Below are positions 13,317 through 57,099 of a DNA stretch of 64,000 nt, piece by piece. The position numbers and the translations under genes were made by a program. Source of the DNA: Podarcis liolepis. Lineage: Eukaryota. Location of the stretch: the NCBI GenBank assembly GCA_965112155.1, contig OZ218113.1. One strand, 5' to 3'. Position 1 is the stretch's first letter, and every line of letters begins with the position of its first letter. The notes beneath the pieces were generated by a model. The model made no database searches and was not told the origin of the DNA. It saw only the letters and a program-made list of their open reading frames with translations.

Positions 13317-15488
13317 TCAGACGCTGGTTCTGCACGTGGCCGGCTGGCCGGGCCTGGAGGCCGTCGGGGGAGCCCCTTTGCCCGCCGAGCTGATCACCCA
13401 CCGGTAGCACTGGGTGACGCTGCGGCTCTTGGCCTGGGCACCGCAGCGGGTGCAGTAGACGATGCCCAGTGCCAGCATGATGACCACGAAGACGCAGATG
13501 GGCACCAGCAGCGCCACCAGCAGCCACCGGTCATCCCTCCGCTGCCGCCCGGGCGCCCCGTCGGGGGTTGGAGTGGCGGGGGGAGCAGAAGTGGGGGGCG
13601 CTGCTCGGACTCCCCCGACCACCGCGGGACTCTCCTCCTCACCAGGCGAATCAGCCGAGACGGGACGGCGGTGGAGGGGAGGCGGAGCGATCGTCGGAGC
13701 GAGCGGGGCCGTCGGGGATGTGGGATCCGCCAGCAGTGAAGGGGGACTCGGGGTGTCTTGGGGGGCGTCCGTTACGGGGAACGGGGAGGGGGATCGGGAG
13801 GCAGGGGGGAGGCCCCAAGCAGCGGTGGGGGTGGAGTTGGGGGGCATGCGAGAACGTCGGGAGGAGGGGCTGGCGTCTAAAAGGGGCGCGGTCGACTTCG
13901 GGTTTGGGGGTTCCGTGGCCGGCAGCATGCGGGGAACCAGGCGGGGGTCTGCGGGGAAGAACGGAGAGGCGACTCTGGCGTCCTGGAAAACGGAGAGGTG
14001 CTCGGAAAGGGCCAGGTTGTGATCGCTGTCATCCTCTTCCTCTACGCCGTCCTCGAGCTCGCCCTCCATCTCCAAACCCAGCCCGTCGTCGAGGTGGTGT
14101 AGGAAGCCGGCTCCGCGGTAGCTCTGGGCGGTGGCCATCGGGGGTGGGTGGGGCGCGGGGCTGCAGGTGATGCCGTCGGGCTCCAAGTCGTAGCCCTCGG
14201 TGCAGTAGCACTCGAAGCCCCCGACGTAGTTGACGCACATCTGCTGGCACACGCCGGGGATCTGGCACTCGTCGGTGTCGGCGCAGCGGCCGGGCTCCTC
14301 CTCCGACGGGCTGAAGCCCAGGTGGCAGCGGCACACGAAGGAGCCGTCGGTGTTCTCGCACTGGTGCTCGCAAGGCGCCTCTGCGCACTCGTCCAGGTCC
14401 TCGCACAGGTGCCCGTCGCTGCCCAGCTCGTAGCCCGCGGGGCATTGGCACCGGTACCCGTCTGCCGCCTCCCCGTCGGCCACGCAGCCGAACTGGCACG
14501 GGCGGCCCCGGCAGGCGTCTCCGTCGGCACCGCCGTCGTGGTGGGTGTGGGAGGCGCAGGAGTGTCCGTCGGGGAGCAGGAAGTACCCGGCGTGGCACTC
14601 GCAGGAGTAGCCCGAGCCCTCGTCCAGGCAGAGCTGCTGGCACCCACCGTTGTCCCCCTCGCACCAGCTGTGCTGATAGACGGCCTCCCGGCACAGCGGC
14701 GCGTCCTTGGACCAGGCCACGCTGCCGTCCTCCTTCTGCATGCACAGTACCGACACCGCCGGCCCTGCCCGGCCGCAGGTCACGGCAGCCACCGTGCCGA
14801 AGGGGACGTAGCGGAGGGCGCCGCTGGCCGGGCCGAACGGGGTGCTGTAGGCGACCGTCGAGGCTCCTCCACCTCCTCCTCCTCCTTCCTCCTCCTCCTC
14901 CATCTCCTCCTCTTCCGCCAGGCCCGCGCACATCCCCTGGAAGGAGAAGCGGCAGAGGTAGCCGTCGACTGGGACGGTGCACGAGCCGTCGAGCCACTGC
15001 AGGTCCAGCTCGCCCAGCACCACGCACCGGGGCGCAGCACAGCTGGGTCCCCCGACGGCGCTGCTAGGCGAGCGCGCCCAGTTGGTGTAGGACGTGTCTT
15101 GGTCGCCCGTCGTCCAAGTGAAGCCCCGCAGCGGCCGTTGCGGGAAGCACTGGCGCGGCTGGCGCTGCAGCCCGATCCAGAGGAGCCGCTGCGGGCCTTG
15201 CGCGTGGCCGCCGCCCCCTCGAACATCGCGGAGCAGCTCGGCCACCTGGGCCGCCTCCTCGGGGTACTTCAGCGTGGCCAGGTTGCCCCCCAGCTCCCGG
15301 CACCCGCGCCAGGCGTCCAGGAAGCTGCGGCGCTGGAAGTAGACGGCGTAGCAGCCGTCGGGGCCGCAGGCGGCCTGCGCCTCTTGCGCCCCGGCGCCGG
15401 GAAGCCGCCAAGCTACAAGCAGCAGCGCCAGCAGCAGCAGCAGCCGCCGCGGCCTGGGCCGTCCTCGTCCTCCTCTTCGCCGGAGCAT
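13317..15488 (-). CDS. CD248: Endosialin/TEM1, single-exon CDS, 723 aa: signal peptide, C-type lectin, sushi, 4 EGF-like, mucin-like stalk, TM helix, PDZ-binding tail
   Basis: The 766-aa track ORF starts at a GTG; the first ATG (15488) precedes a Leu-rich signal peptide. It contains LWIGLQRQPRQC..PLRGFTWTTGDQDT, DTDECQIPGVCQQMCVNYVGGFECYC, RDDRWLLVALLVP and C-terminal CRTSV, all matching mammalian CD248. Confidence 0.97.
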   Translation of the reverse strand: MLRRRGGRGRPRPRRLLLLLALLLVAWRLPGAGAQEAQAACGPDGCYAVYFQRRSFLDAWRGCRELGGNLATLKYPEEAAQVAELLRDVRGGGGHAQGPQRLLWIGLQRQPRQCFPQRPLRGFTWTTGDQDTSYTNWARSPSSAVGGPSCAAPRCVVLGELDLQWLDGSCTVPVDGYLCRFSFQGMCAGLAEEEEMEEEEEGGGGGGGASTVAYSTPFGPASGALRYVPFGTVAAVTCGRAGPAVSVLCMQKEDGSVAWSKDAPLCREAVYQHSWCEGDNGGCQQLCLDEGSGYSCECHAGYFLLPDGHSCASHTHHDGGADGDACRGRPCQFGCVADGEAADGYRCQCPAGYELGSDGHLCEDLDECAEAPCEHQCENTDGSFVCRCHLGFSPSEEEPGRCADTDECQIPGVCQQMCVNYVGGFECYCTEGYDLEPDGITCSPAPHPPPMATAQSYRGAGFLHHLDDGLGLEMEGELEDGVEEEDDSDHNLALSEHLSVFQDARVASPFFPADPRLVPRMLPATEPPNPKSTAPLLDASPSSRRSRMPPNSTPTAAWGLPPASRSPSPFPVTDAPQDTPSPPSLLADPTSPTAPLAPTIAPPPLHRRPVSADSPGEEESPAVVGGVRAAPPTSAPPATPTPDGAPGRQRRDDRWLLVALLVPICVFVVIMLALGIVYCTRCGAQAKSRSVTQCYRWVISSAGKGAPPTASRPGQPATCRTSV

Positions 15489-47569: not shown

Positions 47570-48050
47570 GGACAAAGGGGGACTTGTGTAGCGGCGAGCC
47601 GGGCGCGCGTCCTTCCCTCCTCCCCCTCCTTTTCCTCTCTGCAACACCCAGGCGCGTGCACGTTGCAGCTGCTGTTGGTGCTGCCTGCCTCTCCGCGCGC
47701 CCTGCCCGGGCCGCTCGTTGCTCCCCCGCCCTCCTTCTTCTTCGCTTCTCTCGCTTCCAAATAAGGCGTCGCGCGAGCCAAACCCTCAAGCGCCTCCCTG
47801 ATTCTCACAACCTGATTTGCCCTTATTTGGGCATGTGGAGCGGCGGCGAGGAGGCGCAGCGCCTGGCACGCGGGCGCCCCCCTGCCGCCGTGGGTGGGCA
47901 CTGCAGGGTTTCCTTTTGCCTTCTCTCCTGGGAAGGAAAAGCCGTGCAAAGAATTGGAGGGGGGGAGGGAAAGGGAAAGTGGGGGAGGGGAAAACCCTGG
48001 AGATTTCCACACGTGTGTGCGTGCGTGTGTTACCTTCGCAATAGGCAACA
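47570..48050. promoter_or_regulatory. Orphan CpG island with two CArG (SRF) boxes; putative CFL1 enhancer or alternative promoter
   Basis: CCAAATAAGG at 47757-47766 and CCTTATTTGG at 47821-47830 in a CpG-rich segment with no recognisable ORF. Confidence 0.7.
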
Positions 48051-50720: not shown

Positions 50721-52017
50721 TTTCAGCATAGTGGGGAACAAGTTGAGATTGGGGGGGGGAGCAATCTGTGTGCCTGCTCTGATGGGCAACTTCATGCACC
50801 CCCCCCCCCCGCACTTCTGATGGTTCTTTCTTTTTAACCAGACTTCGATCAGACAGCCCTACAAACATTAAATTGAGGGACTGCCCTCTAAAATAGGGTA
50901 CATGGCTACCCTAATTCCAATGGCTCTGAAGGTCTTTCCGTGCAGTGATGTCTAGATGGATTGGGAACTAAGATTTTTCCTCCCCTGTAAACTCCCCATT
51001 TTGGCCCCCTCCACCCTTTTACCATTTTGCCTGGCTAATCTGCAAGGATCTCCATCCATCCATCCGCCTGTCTACACAGCGGATAAATTTACAAGCTGAC
51101 AAATTCCTGGAGTTCATATAGTGGCGGCAAAATTCCTGGCAATAGCAGATTAGACTGCAAAGCAGCTGGTGAGAAGATGGCTTGACCTTACGGTCTTGGA
51201 AATCAGCCTTCTGTGCTGGGCTGCGTGGCTTTGCAGCAGGAGGTAAGGAGTAGCTAAAATTTAGCTGCAAAATAAAGCTTCTGGGTCCAGAGGCAGTAAA
51301 CCTAAAGTACTGGTTGCTAGGGGTCATGAAGGGGGAGAGTGGGTTATTGCCTAATTGCCTCAGAGTCACCTGGTTGGCTATTGTGGGGAAACACTATGAT
51401 GTGAGGCTGTTAAAGGCAGCCTTGAAGAAGGGCTTGGATTAAAGTTTGCAATCTGACTTTGCAATCAGTTTCAAGGGCTTGGGCTTTTCGTGGACTCTTG
51501 TTTCTACAATTCATCCCTACTCCCTGGTGACATATGAACCTAACCAAATGCCATGCTGCGTCAAAAACCTTGCCTCTCTTTTATTTATTTAATTTTTTAC
51601 ATGCCCTTTGCCATAATGTCCCAGGACAGGTTACAATTATAAATAAAAATGAAACCATTGCAATAATCCCCCCGTCAGTCTTTTTCCCCTTTTACTAAAC
51701 ACAGCTCTAGCTTGGGTCCCCCCCCCCCATGTTTGATCCCTACTCAGCACTCACCAGTCACTGAAGCAGGCAGTGAAACAGAAGGTCAGCACCCTGCCCC
51801 CCACTGGTGGTGCATAATAGAGGTGGACCACGGGGAACCCAGCTCTGGGGCTTCTTTCAGAGCTGGAGCAATGGTGTCATCTGCTGGAGCACCAGGGTGA
51901 CTGGTAGATGCTCCTTGTTTTGGCAAGTGAGGTGATAATGAGGCTTTCAAGTTTCAGAAGGAGGAGTTACTTAATTTATGTACCACTTCATATTTCAACA
52001 TACACCCCCTTAGCAGT

Positions 52018-53658
52018 TTACAAATCTGAACAAAAAGGATTTTTCCGGTGTTTTAAAATTTGTCTAAAGTGAGACATAGCATTATCATTGAAAGTGTTAG
52101 TGGCACGACTTACAGCAGCTTTATCAGGGTGATATTTTTCAACAAAACTTTGCACTTCAACCCATTTTGCACACATTTCTTTGATCAGTGCAGTAGGAAC
52201 ACTGTCTCTTCTCTCCTCCTCCTCCTCCGAAGACAATTTCTCAGTTGTCGCCCGTTGCTGCTCCTTCAGAATGTTTTGAAGTTCTTCTGTGGTGAGTTCC
52301 GTCTTGTGGTCCTCCACTAACTCCTCAACATCATCACTACTCACTTCCAAGCCCATGGACTTTCCCAGAGACACAATCTCCTCAACAATAGGAGCATCCT
52401 CTTCAACATCCTCAAATACACATTCAGGGACAGCTTCTGGCCACAATGTCTTCCATGCTGACTTCATTGTTCTCTGAGACACATCCCTCCATGCTTTGTC
52501 TATAAGATGTAAGCAATGTAGGATATTGAAATTATTCTTCCAGAACTCTCTGAGGGTTAGCTCTGTGTCTGAGGTAACCTCAAAGCACCTTTGGAACAGT
52601 GCTCTGGTGTAAAGCTTCTTAAAATTAGGTATGACCTGCTGGTCCATGGGCTGGATGAGAGAAGTTGTGTTGGGGGGCAAAAACATTACATTGATAAAAC
52701 TGAACTCTTCCACCAACTCTTCCTCCAACCCTGGAGGGTGAGCTGGAGCACTATCCATAACAAGCAGGCACTTCATTGGGAGATTTTTGTACTGGAGGTA
52801 TTCTTTTACACTTGGCCCAAACACTTCATGAACCCACTCAATAAAAAACTGCCTGGTTACCCAAGCTTTGCTGTTTGCCCTCCACATCACAGGCAATTTG
52901 CTTTTTATGACATTGTTTTTCTTAAATACCCAGGGGTTCTCAGAATGGTAGACTAGCAAAGGCGTCACCTTAAAATCTCCACTTGCATTCCCACATAATA
53001 AAAGGGTTAGCCTGTCTTTCATGGGCTTGTGTCCTGGCAATGATTTCTCCTCCTTTGTTATGTAGGTATTCTTTGGCATTTTCTTCCAAAAGAGGCCTGT
53101 CTCATCACAGTTGAAAACTTGTTGGGGAAGGAAACCATCTGCCTCTACATAATCTTTAAATGCCAAAACAAATCGGTTGGCTTCTTCTTTGATGGCACTG
53201 GCAGCTTCACCAAGCCTCACCACACTGTGGATGCCACTTCTCCTCTTAAAATTATCAAACCACCCTCTGCTTGCCTTGAAAATATCACTCTCAGCACTTG
53301 TTCCAGGGGTGCTTTTGATGAGGTCAGCATGCAAATCTAAAGCTTTTTTACAAATCATGCTCTCAGAAATGCGGTCACCCGCCAACTGTTTTTCATTTAT
53401 CCATATGAAAAGCAATTTTTCCACTTCTTCAATTGTCTGTGTTCTTTGTCTTGTAAGTGTTTTAACACCTCTTGCAACATTGGCTCCTTTAATGGCTTCT
53501 TTATTTTTTAAGATGCTAGAAACTGTAGATTTGGCAATACCAAACTGCTTTGCCAGATCACTTACACGGACACCACTTTCATGTTTGGAAATAATTTCCT
53601 TCTTCACCTCTATTGTTATTCTGTTAAGGATTTTCTTGGCTTTACAGCTTTTATCCAT
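52018..53658 (-). CDS. Tigger/pogo-family transposase (TIGD1-like), 546 aa uninterrupted: CENP-B-type HTH, HTH_Tnp_Tc5, DDE_1
   Basis: FKASRGWFDNFKRR, FNCDETGLFWK, KDRLTLLLCGNASGD, LVMDSAPAH and LPPNTTSLIQPMDQ; catalytic triad with 36 residues between the second and third Asp (DD36D). Confidence 0.9.
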   Translation of the reverse strand: MDKSCKAKKILNRITIEVKKEIISKHESGVRVSDLAKQFGIAKSTVSSILKNKEAIKGANVARGVKTLTRQRTQTIEEVEKLLFIWINEKQLAGDRISESMICKKALDLHADLIKSTPGTSAESDIFKASRGWFDNFKRRSGIHSVVRLGEAASAIKEEANRFVLAFKDYVEADGFLPQQVFNCDETGLFWKKMPKNTYITKEEKSLPGHKPMKDRLTLLLCGNASGDFKVTPLLVYHSENPWVFKKNNVIKSKLPVMWRANSKAWVTRQFFIEWVHEVFGPSVKEYLQYKNLPMKCLLVMDSAPAHPPGLEEELVEEFSFINVMFLPPNTTSLIQPMDQQVIPNFKKLYTRALFQRCFEVTSDTELTLREFWKNNFNILHCLHLIDKAWRDVSQRTMKSAWKTLWPEAVPECVFEDVEEDAPIVEEIVSLGKSMGLEVSSDDVEELVEDHKTELTTEELQNILKEQQRATTEKLSSEEEEERRDSVPTALIKEMCAKWVEVQSFVEKYHPDKAAVSRATNTFNDNAMSHFRQILKHRKNPFCSDL

Positions 53659-53995
53659 TTCTCACAGCACGGGGTGATTGGCAGAGGGCTCCTGAGATGA
53701 GATGAATACAGATTTATGCACTGGGTTCCACAGTCACAAAAACAAACTGGTTGCAAGAGAGCTCCTGAGATGAGCACAGATTGATTGCATACAGTCACCA
53801 AATAAGCCCAAATATCACCTCTGTGGTGCACGGGTGCCAACAGCTAGGCCTCAGGATCTTGCACTCAGCAGAAGCTGCGTGGCATGTTCGACTTCCGAGG
53901 TGTGTTCAAAAACCGAAGCATTTACTTCCAGGTTTACAGCTTTCGTAAACCGAAACATTCATCAATAGAAACATTCGAAAACCGAGGTCCCACTG
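52042..53995 (-). mobile_element. Tigger DNA transposon, 3'-truncated (5' TIR only)
   Basis: Minus strand begins CAGTGGGACCTCGGTTTTCGAA at 53995; no matching TIR was seen downstream of the ORF. Confidence 0.8.
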
Positions 53996-55123
53996 TGTAA
54001 GAAACACAATACAATTTCCGCATTCAAAACCAAATACTGTACCAAATTATAAATCATGATTCCACATTCTAATTTAATTCAATAAATGTGCATGTAAGTG
54101 AAAGAACCAAGTACCACAAAAAAAAAATCTTATACAAAACATCCAAATGCAGAAGACCCTTCGGAAGCTGCAGGCAGACATGCAGGGTGTGTTAGAGCTA
54201 TGACAAATTGCAGGCAGCTGACTTCACAGCACCTCTCTGTTGCTCACGCGGCTTGCCTCTTATTGAATTAGGTGTAACCACACCTTTAGCACATATAATG
54301 CCTCTGCCTGCCTGTTGATGAGCAATCTTCAAAGAACACAGGATGACTACACACCTGACAGAAGGAGCGGAAGGATGATTTCAGTCTTACTCCATCTACT
54401 CTCCCCAACCCCGTCTCATGAACCATGTGCCACCTTGGAGGTCCACTCCTTCAACAAATTTATTGTGCTAGCCAGAGGCCATGACAATCACCTTGGAGAT
54501 TATATAGAGAGAATCTATTCTGAAACATAGGAAGCTGCCTTATACAGAATCAGACCCACTGGTCCATCTAACTATATTGACTGGCAGCAGCTCTCCAGGC
54601 AGGGCTCTCTGCCAGCCCTACCTGGAGATGCTGGGGATTGAGCCTCTGGGATCTCCTGAATGCAAAAATTGTGGTCAAACCACTGAGAAATGGCCCTTCC
54701 TGGTTCACAGATGTCTTTTTAAATTTGCAAAGCGGAGCAGTGCATATTAAGGTTCTCTTAATAAGGCAGCAATCTTAATCTGTGTTATGTAAACATGAAA
54801 AGGCACTTAGGAGCAGAGTAATAATTGGCAGCTTCAGCTATAAGAATCAAAGTAGCAGGTGATGGGAAAGAAAGATCCTTCTCTGGTGGAAACCCTGGAG
54901 AGCGGCTGCCAGTCAAAGCAGATGCCACTGGCCTAGACGGACAAATAATTTGCAGCTTCTTCCCTTTCATGGGAGGGACTGTAACTCGGTGACAAAGCAT
55001 CAGCACTGCATGCAGACGGCATGCAGCATCTCCTGTTAGAAAGGGATTGAGCAGTTTAAATGTATCCCAGGTCCAAAGAGGGGAGAAGCAGCAGCTCATA
55101 GTAATCCATGGGAAAGCCTAATA

Positions 55124-55259
55124 CCGTCTTCCTCAAACTCGGCCCTCCGGATGTTTTGAGACTACAATTCCCATCATCCCTGACCACTGGTCCTGCTAGC
55201 TAGGGATCATGGGAGTTTTAGGCCAAAAATATCTGGAGGGCCCAGTTTGAGGAAGCCTG
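55124..55259. mobile_element. Palindromic hAT MITE
   Basis: cttcctcaaact...agtttgaggaagcctg; TSD GCCTAATA/GTCTAATA. Confidence 0.82.
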
Positions 55260-55949
55260 GTCTAATATATCCACATAATTGTGACTGGGCGTTTAGAGTT
55301 GCTGCCAACTAATCTCTGTTCAGAGTAGATCCAATGTAACAAATTGGCCGAAGTGGGATCACGTTCATTATGATCAGAGCATCTACTCCAAGTAGGGCTA
55401 ATGCTGGATACAACTCTTAGTGCGTCCACACACCCCAAAACAGATCGCAGCAAAGAGGGGTGCTTCTGCTCTACCTCTTTCCTTAAAAAAAAAGAAGTTT
55501 TTCAACATATTCATAAAGTAGCCCAGCTAATACAAACGCACGTGCATCTCATTATTTCCATGATTGCAGGTTGGAGACTGTAGTTGGGAGTGCCTTGCGA
55601 CAGCCCTGCAGTGCACTGTCTTCTGAGTACTGCGGAATGGAGGCTTGCCTGAAGCCGAGAGAGTAGTTTGCAAGGGCCCTTCAAAATGCACTCCAGTAGT
55701 AATTGGCCCCAATGCAGGAAGGGCTGAGACTGAAACAGTACAGTAGCTTGCAACAACCCTGCAGTGTTGCCCGCTATGACACCCCTACTGCATAGCTGTC
55801 AACGTTTCCCTTTTTTAAAGGGAAATTCCCTTATTCCGAATAGGACTCCTCGCAAGAAAAGGGAAAAGTTGACAGCTATGCCCTATTGCAGGAGGGGCTT
55901 CACAGGTCTGCGATGCTTACTGGTGGGAGGCTCAGGTGGGTCTGGTTGG

Positions 55950-56500
55950 CTTTTGTGAGCAAAGGCGAGTCGTATTTCTTTTTACCTTCCCCAGAGCCAA
56001 ATCCAGCGCTCAGTTGCCTACGGGAGACTCAACCTGCCCCACCGACTCGCGGGCAAAGCGGCTGTCATTTTAGATCTGCCCAGGCGCCTCTCTCACTTTC
56101 GCCTCTGGAGAGAAGGCTGGTTGAGAGCGGGAACGCGGAAGCGGCCGCTCTTCCCTTTTCATGCGTCTACGGTTCCGCCCGTCGGCCTCTAGGGGGCGAA
56201 GCGCGCGTGCGCAGTCGCTGCCTGGCAGGCCGCTCTGCCTTCCCCGCTTCATCTCCCCGTCGAGTTCCGGGTCAAAGAGAAAAGAGAAACTTTCCGGCGC
56301 CTTCGGAAGATGCCGAAGCCCACTCAGGGGGTCCCGAACCCCTTATTTACGCGCTGGCTCCAGGAGTGGCGCGACCAGGCCGCCGAGCGCGGGCGCCTCA
56401 GGAGCCAACGCGCCTATGAACGGGTAAGCCACGCCCTCTAGTGGCAGGCCACGCCCTCCGGGTGTTTTGCTCCGCCCATATCCCCCTTCGCGCTCGTTGG
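55950..56500 (+). promoter_or_regulatory. MUS81: MUS81 CpG-island promoter
   Basis: CpG-rich; ETS-like CGGAAG/TTCCGG sites, NRF1-like GCGCGTGCGC, and CTCF-like motifs at 56186-56198 (+) and 56431-56444 (-). Confidence 0.75.
56310..56423 (+). CDS. MUS81: MUS81 crossover-junction endonuclease, coding exon 1
   Basis: MPKPTQGVPNPLFTRWLQEWRDQAAERGRLRSQRAYER|GTAAG matches human CPNPLFVRWLTEWRDEA; in-frame upstream TAG at 56190. Not in the ORF track. Confidence 0.92.
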
Positions 56501-57099
56501 ATTCCCCTCAGCACCCAATTTATAATGTAGTAATATAATGCTAACACATAATATTAAACTTCTTGGACTTTTCTCCCCAGCTGGCCATTAGGATAACTTG
56601 CATCTGAAATTGTTTGTTTCCTCCTCTCTCCCAATACATTTTCCTCTAGTGCTATGCCTTAAAATTATAAGCCTTCGGGCAGGGACCTATGAGTAAAGCT
56701 GCTATGGGAGCTCTGTTTTTGGCTGAACAAGCAGGATCGATAAACATGCATAAATGATGGGTAAGATCTTGACTTGGAGTCCACCCATGTTAGTTACTAA
56801 TTTCAATATGTATCTTCTAAGTATCACTTACAAAGCAATCCTGTACATATACTGTATACTGAGAAATCTTACTCCCAAATAAAGTGAGTATCAGGTTGAA
56901 ATTGAAGTCTGGATCCAGCCCTAAGTATCAGCAACTATGAACTGACCAAAGAGAATATGTATGGGTTAGTTCAAATTTCACAGAGTGGTTGTGGCTCCAG
57001 CCTGAACTGCTCTCCTTGTTAGTCAAAGCGAAGAGACAGGGGAAACCATGTGCACCTCTCCTTACTATCAAAACAATAAATCCTCTTCCTTGTGTTCAG

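Follow-up and report, generated by a model that had tools for sequence, protein, structure and literature searches.

When an intact transposase frame is found next to the promoter of a host gene, one question has to be answered: is it by now a gene of the host, or is it what remains of a transposon? The question is raised here by a 64,000-nucleotide stretch of the genome of the lizard Podarcis liolepis (NCBI GenBank assembly GCA_965112155.1, contig OZ218113.1), hereafter the window, in which a Tigger element lies antisense to, and about 2 kb upstream of, the gene MUS81. This head-to-head arrangement, noticed in an earlier sequence-only reading, is borne out by our data; the lineage-restricted TIGD-like gene with a transcript from the MUS81 side, which the same reading proposed, is supported by a splice junction, sense reads, orthologues and a depletion of changes in conserved columns. 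The explanation that we favor, with a probability of roughly 0.6, is that an immobile, 3'-truncated Tigger gene, which in close relatives is joined by splicing to a host exon within the MUS81 CpG island, has been domesticated in lacertids, most plausibly as a protein that binds the terminal inverted repeats (TIRs) of its own family. That domestication as such took place appears quite probable. The argument involves the following features, the open reading frame being abbreviated as ORF, untranslated regions as UTR and observed/expected ratios as o/e:

55900 to 56500, no strand: CpG island, CpG o/e 0.6-1.1, putative bidirectional promoter, with motifs inside that we take to be NRF1-like and ETS-like
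56310 to 56423, plus strand: first coding exon of MUS81, joined to about 57100
55986 to 56187, minus strand: non-coding exon 1 of the Tigger transcript, host DNA from the margin of the MUS81 CpG island, donor GGGAAG/gtaaaa
53993 to 55985, minus strand: leader intron of 1993 nt, GT-AG, its joint present in four of four contig sets
53972 to 53995, minus strand: 5' TIR, length approximate, beginning with CAG, the AG at 53994-53993 being the splice acceptor
53659 to 53992, minus strand: element-derived leader that opens exon 2, with six upstream ATGs and catctcagG at 53764 and 53691
52018 to 53658, minus strand: Tigger/pogo transposase ORF, 546 codons, stop-free, with three Pfam domains and D185/D302/D339
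52018 to 52040, minus strand: point of truncation, the final seven codons and stop being supplied by flanking DNA; tail shared with the Podarcis and Zootoca proteins
51560 to 52017, minus strand: host-derived 3' UTR with old repeat fragments (72-87%), 3' end approximate, contig cover 51578-52093
51580 to 51589, minus strand: overlapping AATAAA hexamers, likely the poly(A) signal, judged from the sequence and the end of contig cover

The Tigger frame and its protein

The intact 546-codon frame and the complete DD36D triad claimed from the sequence are both present: the ORF extends from 53658 to 52018 on the minus strand with zero stops, and its protein contains CENP-B_N (residues 10-56), HTH_Tnp_Tc5 (77-145) and DDE_1 (214-402), all above the curated Pfam cut-offs, which is the domain set of pogo/Tigger transposases. 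The catalytic aspartates are D185, D302 and D339, and the 36 residues that separate the last two place the triad inside the DD29-36D range given for Tigger (PMC7386202). A structure model built from a 92-sequence alignment (mean pLDDT 78) matches Mos1 transposase and the DNA-binding domain of CENP-B, and the paired helix-turn-helix (HTH) domains match the CENP-B structure 1hlv with an E value of 4.5e-10. The ATG does have the good Kozak context ascribed to it (G at -3 and at +4), but this context is not specific to the window: two other family copies, L002 and L004, carry the identical gtgagAAATGG, so that it was inherited from the element and had to be rejected as a sign of domestication.

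An immobile copy of an old family

The 5' TIR of the window element begins at 53995 and is flanked by CA, TA being the flank at 45 of the 54 TIR ends in the fetched loci. Similarity to the family ends at about 52040; other copies extend some 480 bp further, through a conserved GTAAG donor-like motif to the 3' TIR, and all of this is missing, in agreement with the claim of a 5' TIR without a 3' counterpart. Thus, the element has a 5' TIR only and a CA flank, as opposed to the two TIRs and TA flanks of a mobile Tigger, and because its 3' end including the 3' TIR is gone, it is immobile. The 3' ends of copies L003 and L007 found no match near the window ORF; a 3' end displaced to another place in the window was considered as well and rejected, the sole matches being unrelated short elements at 1.6-7.1 kb.

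The caution that the copy might be young was mistaken as to its age. In a search of the lizard's own genome, in which 40 of 1890 candidates were scored, eight places including the window cover at least 1400 query bases, and the seven other near-full copies are 85-87% identical to the window copy. The family is old, since 136 pairwise comparisons of 17 non-autonomous copies give a divergence of about 10%, and a 25-letter pattern of its TIR has 680 exact matches in the genome, the reversed control giving 0. A recently inserted or still mobile element would readily have its frame and triad intact; yet the 3' TIR is absent, no near-identical copy was found among the 40 candidates scored, the nearest being as distant as just described, and an identical truncation tail is carried by Zootoca vivipara, so that a young copy seems extremely improbable.

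A leader intron that ends in the terminal repeat

The RNA evidence comes from eight of the 24 listed runs: four contig sets from four studies (three of organism A, one of organism B; about 100 million letters each) and four raw RNA runs, of each of which 6-12% was read, with junctions listed from three reads upwards. The runs stem from relatives that are about 97-99% identical to the window. In all four contig sets, 53992 is joined to 55986 across an intron that is GT-AG on the minus strand (CT..AC on the plus strand), and the intron bins 54104-54441, 54949-55117 and 55287-55455 have zero cover in all of them. Hence, the predicted donor at 55986/55985 is used in four of four sets; the second predicted donor, near 55920, and the acceptors predicted at 53691 and 53764 showed no use in these contigs. 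The real acceptor is 53993/53992, the AG being bases 2 and 3 of the terminal CAG of the TIR, so that the anticipated junction proved right at its donor and wrong at its acceptor. The acceptors at 53691 and 53764 were rejected because unspliced contigs span 53634-53865 in all four sets; a motif of the 53691 type also occurs in copy L002. An exceptional pyrimidine tract ahead of the window TIR was likewise rejected: pyrimidines occupy 12 of the 20 preceding positions, and 19 of the 54 TIR ends in the fetched loci equal or exceed this.

The upstream ATG frames of the spliced leader are all short and all end ahead of the main ATG, and an in-frame stop lies two codons 5' of it; therefore, the gene is not a host-transposase fusion. 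At the other end, the AATAAA hexamers pointed out from the sequence agree with the contigs, one of which reaches 51578 while none covers 51400-51568. In the stranded raw runs X23 and X24, with the MUS81 joint as strand control, the 3' UTR bin 51856-52069 has a depth of 1.2 and 2.1 in the sense of the ORF and of 0 on the opposite strand. A depth of 10-85 over 52498-53139 in the raw runs was dropped as paralogue cross-mapping at 90% likeness. The transcription and processing to be expected of a domesticated gene have thus been seen, in relatives, as a canonical intron in four of four contig sets and as sense reads. The intron also holds hairpin-forming short repeats at 55128-55255 and 55790-55881, with thousands of cross-mapping reads.

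MUS81 begins at 56310 on the plus strand, and its exon joint 56422-57099 is present in all four raw RNA runs. The MUS81 contigs start at 56228-56296, those with exon 1 of the Tigger transcript reach 56103 (X1) and 56187 (X5), which are contig ends and not start sites, and a contig of X13 spans both. Since contigs cannot reveal start sites, a shared promoter is deduced from the adjacent 5' exons, and the Tigger transcript would start from the back of the MUS81 promoter. Presumably, the island contains an NRF1-like motif at 56203 and ETS-like motifs at 56136, 56265, 56292 and 56304, as read without a chance control.

Orthologues in other lacertids

The best protein match of the window ORF is a TIGD1-like model of Zootoca vivipara, and the protein cluster of this match has four members: two Zootoca versions, Podarcis raffonei and Podarcis muralis. 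The window protein is 98% identical to the RefSeq TIGD1-like models of P. raffonei (XP_053226160/1) and P. muralis (XP_028565566/7), with 10 differences in 546 residues each, and 93% identical to that of Zootoca (XP_034954627), with 40 in 546. Judging from their sequences, these models very likely represent the same gene as the window ORF: the Podarcis and Zootoca orthologues share the truncation tail and five clade-specific residues. Because the tail is shared, insertion and truncation can be placed before the Podarcis-Zootoca split. The frame is whole in these three other lacertid species, i.e. in four with the window. As to synteny, contigs of organisms A and B link the element to the exon at the MUS81 island; for Zootoca, the shared tail is what speaks to position. 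The unusual motifs in which the earlier reading saw possible decay turn out to be of different kinds: VVRLGE and VIPNFK occur in all four species, ENPWVF is common to the Podarcis sequences, Zootoca having a G, and MDSAPAH is found in the window protein alone.

Constraint or chance survival?

One indication of constraint is where the changes fall. Over residues 1-539, only 3 of the 38 differences between the window and Zootoca proteins are in conserved columns, here the 186 with at least 90% conservation across 83 outside homologues, as compared to 13 expected from 1500 neutral simulations; with three thresholds and either of two mutation models, P stays below 0.002. Four pairs of broken copies show little or no such depletion: 22-33% of their differences are in conserved columns, which make up 26-36% of the columns. 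The pairs within Podarcis are too close for this test (2 of 10, p=0.27). By region, 6 of 145 residues differ from Zootoca in the HTH domains (4.1%), 12 of 222 in the DDE region (5.4%) and 16 of 137 in the C-terminus. The window orthologue pair of Podarcis and Zootoca is 93% identical; the three sister copies for which Zootoca has an orthologue reach 82-88%. In addition, the comparison with P. muralis gives 10 amino-acid changes in about 1170 sites, a lower frequency than that of the UTR changes found against organism A, 17 in 741 (Fisher p=0.015), these being hand-read counts from different individuals that exclude 53840-53992, where repeat copies may be mixed in.

Several observations weigh against domestication. 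When nine genomic copies are placed on a tree, the branch leading to the window copy has 0.038 nonsynonymous and 0.033 synonymous changes per site (dN and dS; ratio 1.15, confidence interval 0.66-2.33); codon likelihood gives a dN/dS of 1.02 (p=0.95 versus 1), and with CpG codons masked it is 1.0, a value of 0.3 being rejected and 0.4 borderline. CpG decay as the cause of this ratio was rejected, since masking 182 of 539 codons changed nothing. The ratio lies above that of the broken copies (0.45-0.7; 0.51 by the codon model), which, with such values, are a poor neutral control, probably because their branches include evolution in the active phase; for the sister copies L002, L004 and L006, the codon model gives 0.24-0.39. 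Between the window ORF and organisms A and B, 12 differences are listed, seven of them nonsynonymous (record 5 of run X1, with 18 differences in 328, having been excluded as a paralogue). The protein deviates from its family at the conserved K232, R243 and H376, residue 303 is Ser instead of the usual Asn, the third catalytic aspartate, D339, is replaced by Glu both in Zootoca and in X1 and X5 contigs, and the CpG o/e of the ORF, 0.16, resembles that of broken family copies. As for the transcript, the contig sets bear the guessed label 'RNA?' and come from relatives rather than from the sample of the window; the spliced leader contains 6-8 upstream ATGs (six in the element part, two in exon 1); the raw depth in the sense of the ORF is only about 1-4 over locus-specific parts; and the Tigger junction is below the three-read threshold in the four raw RNA runs. 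The presence of the gene in other squamates, which the earlier reading had wanted checked, is indicated by the intact orthologues of P. raffonei, P. muralis and Zootoca, and no orthologue of Lacerta agilis or Podarcis lilfordi is among the matches listed (120 of 1297, 120 of 936 and 24 of 24), which may equally mean loss, absence or missing annotation. Finally, the frame would have survived by chance with a probability of 5-12% at an empirical rate, taken from a younger Tigger family (2.4% per lineage) of whose 16 best-scoring copies 4 are intact, and of 0.1-2% in simulation.

Many of these points would fit a neutral transcribed relic, in which antisense transcription from the MUS81 island met the acceptor in the TIR while the frame, lying where mutations are slow to accumulate, stayed open by luck. 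The window-branch dN/dS of about 1, the shortest synonymous branch of all nine tips, a single-copy survival of 5-12%, the leader laden with upstream frames, the low read depth and the lack of an L. agilis orthologue among the matches listed are all in keeping with it, as is the fact that Gao et al. handled TIGD1-like sequences as akin to pseudogenes (PMC7386202). However, luck accounts poorly for differences to Zootoca that avoid conserved columns (3 of 38 versus 13), for a frame intact in four species, and for five of eight intact copies at the level of the family (P of 1e-3 to 2e-5), and we consider such a relic unlikely, albeit an explanation to be reckoned with. As regards the ratio near 1 that was to refute the proposal, it does appear in the paralogue-based branch test, whereas the conserved-column test points to constraint. 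With one test for purifying selection and another against it, the protein may be weakly constrained, and the window branch, which rests on few synonymous changes, would reflect relaxed evolution early on and weak constraint later.

If the gene is domesticated, it could still encode a catalytic nuclease, either with a repair role and co-expressed with MUS81, or mobilizing non-autonomous copies in trans. A repair role has been proposed for SETMAR/Metnase. D185, D302 and D339 are all kept in the window, in P. raffonei and in the P. muralis reference, conservation of the DDE region is comparable to that of the HTH domains (5.4% versus 4.1% different), and the predicted fold matches Mos1 transpososomes; but the triad is not a feature kept throughout, Zootoca having D339E together with T187A, and D339E recurs in contigs from two studies. 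Moreover, the 17 non-autonomous copies, about 10% apart, are old, and the link between the Tigger protein and MUS81 biology is one of position only. A cutting enzyme thus seems quite improbable.

Sister copies of the family

Five of the eight near-full family copies are intact, namely the window copy and the following four, with the RefSeq models that they match:

L002, G000:C2:118.3 Mb: Tigger-SCAN-zinc finger model, 97%, transposase N-terminal
L004, C2:106.9 Mb: model with a host N-terminal extension, at a zinc-finger locus
L005, C2:121.0 Mb: Tigger-KRAB-zinc finger model, 94% (82% in Zootoca), transposase N-terminal
L006, C6:5.15 Mb: P. muralis model named under casein kinase II alpha

Every intact copy has a lacertid orthologue; L003, L007 and L008 have stops and frameshifts. 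Under the empirical survival rate, at least five intact copies of eight would be found with a P of 1e-3 to 2e-5, in a comparison for which both copy sets were ranked by similarity. A KRAB domain in P0004, the orthologue of L004, gave no Pfam hit and was set aside, though the N-terminal motif may be likened to a KRAB box.

It is conceivable, though rather doubtful, that five copies of one Tigger family were captured by different routes (capture of the antisense promoter beside MUS81, fusion with SCAN- or KRAB-zinc-finger proteins, an N-terminal extension of host origin and a transcript of the CSNK2A1 locus) and became lacertid-specific regulators that share a DNA-binding specificity and hundreds of TIR sites. 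On this speculative account, a family that was probably acquired horizontally would have given the lacertid ancestor some eight full-length coding copies. Horizontal transfer between bats and lacertids is suggested by the protein sequences, since fragments from Rhinolophus ferrumequinum (P0145-P0147, P0208) share 78-85% identity with the window protein, which puts them on a par with the lizard paralogues; for other bat Tigger proteins, the figure is 68-71%. One non-autonomous Tc-mariner element is common to bats, Zootoca and L. agilis, 'Tigger' not being mentioned in the accessible part of that paper (PMC10162687).

The ORFs of L002, L004 and L006 differ in composition from the other copies (GC3 0.51-0.53 versus 0.39-0.46; CpG o/e 0.55-0.62 versus 0.12-0.26) and have long synonymous branches. 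In L006, the first and second catalytic motifs are altered in Podarcis (NCHETG, MDDALSD), the first Asp being kept in Zootoca and Lacerta. Some 1 kb upstream of the L002 element (L036:3300-4825) there is a GC-rich island, and a pyrimidine run closely precedes the TIR of this element, whose CAG may also be an acceptor. A copy at G000:C8:24.55 Mb (L009/L012) has a large internal deletion that leaves a 364-codon frame open. The younger second Tigger family (L014 and L016-L030) has a median pairwise identity of 95% and a different TIR, and 4 of its 16 examined copies are intact. Bat TIGD1-like proteins of Molossus, Miniopterus and Myotis (P0008, P0009, P0011) are 86-89% identical to one another across three families and, from their sequences, could possibly represent another domesticated Tigger gene.

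A possible role at transposon ends

The favored scenario, domestication of an immobile Tigger gene, can be envisaged as follows. A Tigger element would have inserted antisense about 2 kb upstream of MUS81 and lost its 3' end, both events predating, to judge from the common tail, the split of Podarcis and Zootoca. Transcription would proceed from the back of the MUS81 promoter, and the transcript, as seen in relatives, would pass from the host donor at 55986 to the CAG of the TIR, through the ORF, to near the host AATAAA. The protein, predicted to be translated and weakly constrained, would then bind the TIRs of its family, as a regulator or competitor at transposon ends and not as a cutting enzyme. 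This prediction is based on the HTH domains being least changed (6 of 145), on the third Asp not being fixed, on the 680 TIR sites and on the precedent of JRK, which binds Tigger15a termini (10.1101/2024.11.11.622097); the TIR-binding role is tentative, at somewhat less than even odds. Like JRK and CENP-B, the window protein has paired HTH domains; unlike these old and widely conserved proteins, it belongs to a young and, it seems, weakly constrained gene, and its binding is a prediction.

Relation to known Tigger-derived genes

The capture of Tigger genes in head-to-head orientation, including TIGD1-EIF4E2, has been described by Kalitsis and Saffery (2009), who found 8 of 13 human Tigger-derived genes to be bidirectional and whose model D(iii) involves a new upstream exon and intron (PMC2777200). 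As in primate TIGD1-EIF4E2, a Tigger ORF antisense to a CpG-island gene has kept its catalytic core, lost one TIR and remained lineage-restricted (PMC2777200). The lacertid case differs in being an independent insertion of a different family, in lacertids and beside MUS81, in that the acceptor is the terminal CAG of the TIR, and in that the body of the ORF is CpG-depleted. The window locus is likely a lacertid TIGD1-like domesticated gene that arose by the published bidirectional-promoter route known from mammals.

Gao et al. (2020) require of a domesticated gene that neither of its sides carry a TIR or target-site duplication, and by this rule the window copy, with its 5' TIR retained, would be classed as a transposon (PMC7386202); primate TIGD1 is itself described as lacking just one TIR (PMC2777200). 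Gao et al. excluded TIGD1-like sequences as pseudogene-like (PMC7386202), and the present locus bears on that dismissal of narrowly distributed sequences, five of eight near-full copies of one family being intact here and having orthologues. In the host-transposase fusions of Cosby et al., splice sites are supplied by the transposon, and in 8 of 9 cases the acceptor closely precedes the ORF (10.1101/2020.05.07.082677). The window splice site is transposon-derived too, and the sister copies L002 and L005 match zinc-finger fusion models; unlike in those fusions, the window acceptor is 334 nt upstream of the ORF, at the extreme end of the element. A lacertid is named in the legend of Fig. 1 of Cosby et al., and their Table S3 may therefore list the sister fusions.

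What was already known of the gene is the automatic RefSeq annotation in three lacertids, as TIGD1-like models 93-98% identical to the window protein and with the identical tail; what is new is the exact acceptor and the retention of five of eight copies in one family. We found no paper on a lacertid Tigger gene linked to MUS81, in a search largely outside subscription journals. The locus would offer a young, datable reptile case of gene birth by promoter capture, with the capturing splice site known to the base, and early domestication can be compared across sister copies of equal age. If, as in the fetched loci, TIR ends of the family generally start with CAG, every copy that lands in a transcribed region brings a candidate acceptor with it.

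Other features of the window

A cofilin exon lies at about 36.4-36.7 kb of the window on the minus strand. A GC-rich patch at 47590-47890, about 8 kb from a CpG-rich region at 39-40 kb, contains what we take to be two CArG-like boxes (at about 47758 and 47821) and is possibly an upstream cofilin promoter. At 13317-15488, on the minus strand, there is a single-exon ORF for a 723-residue C-type lectin/EGF membrane protein, which is presumably CD248-like.

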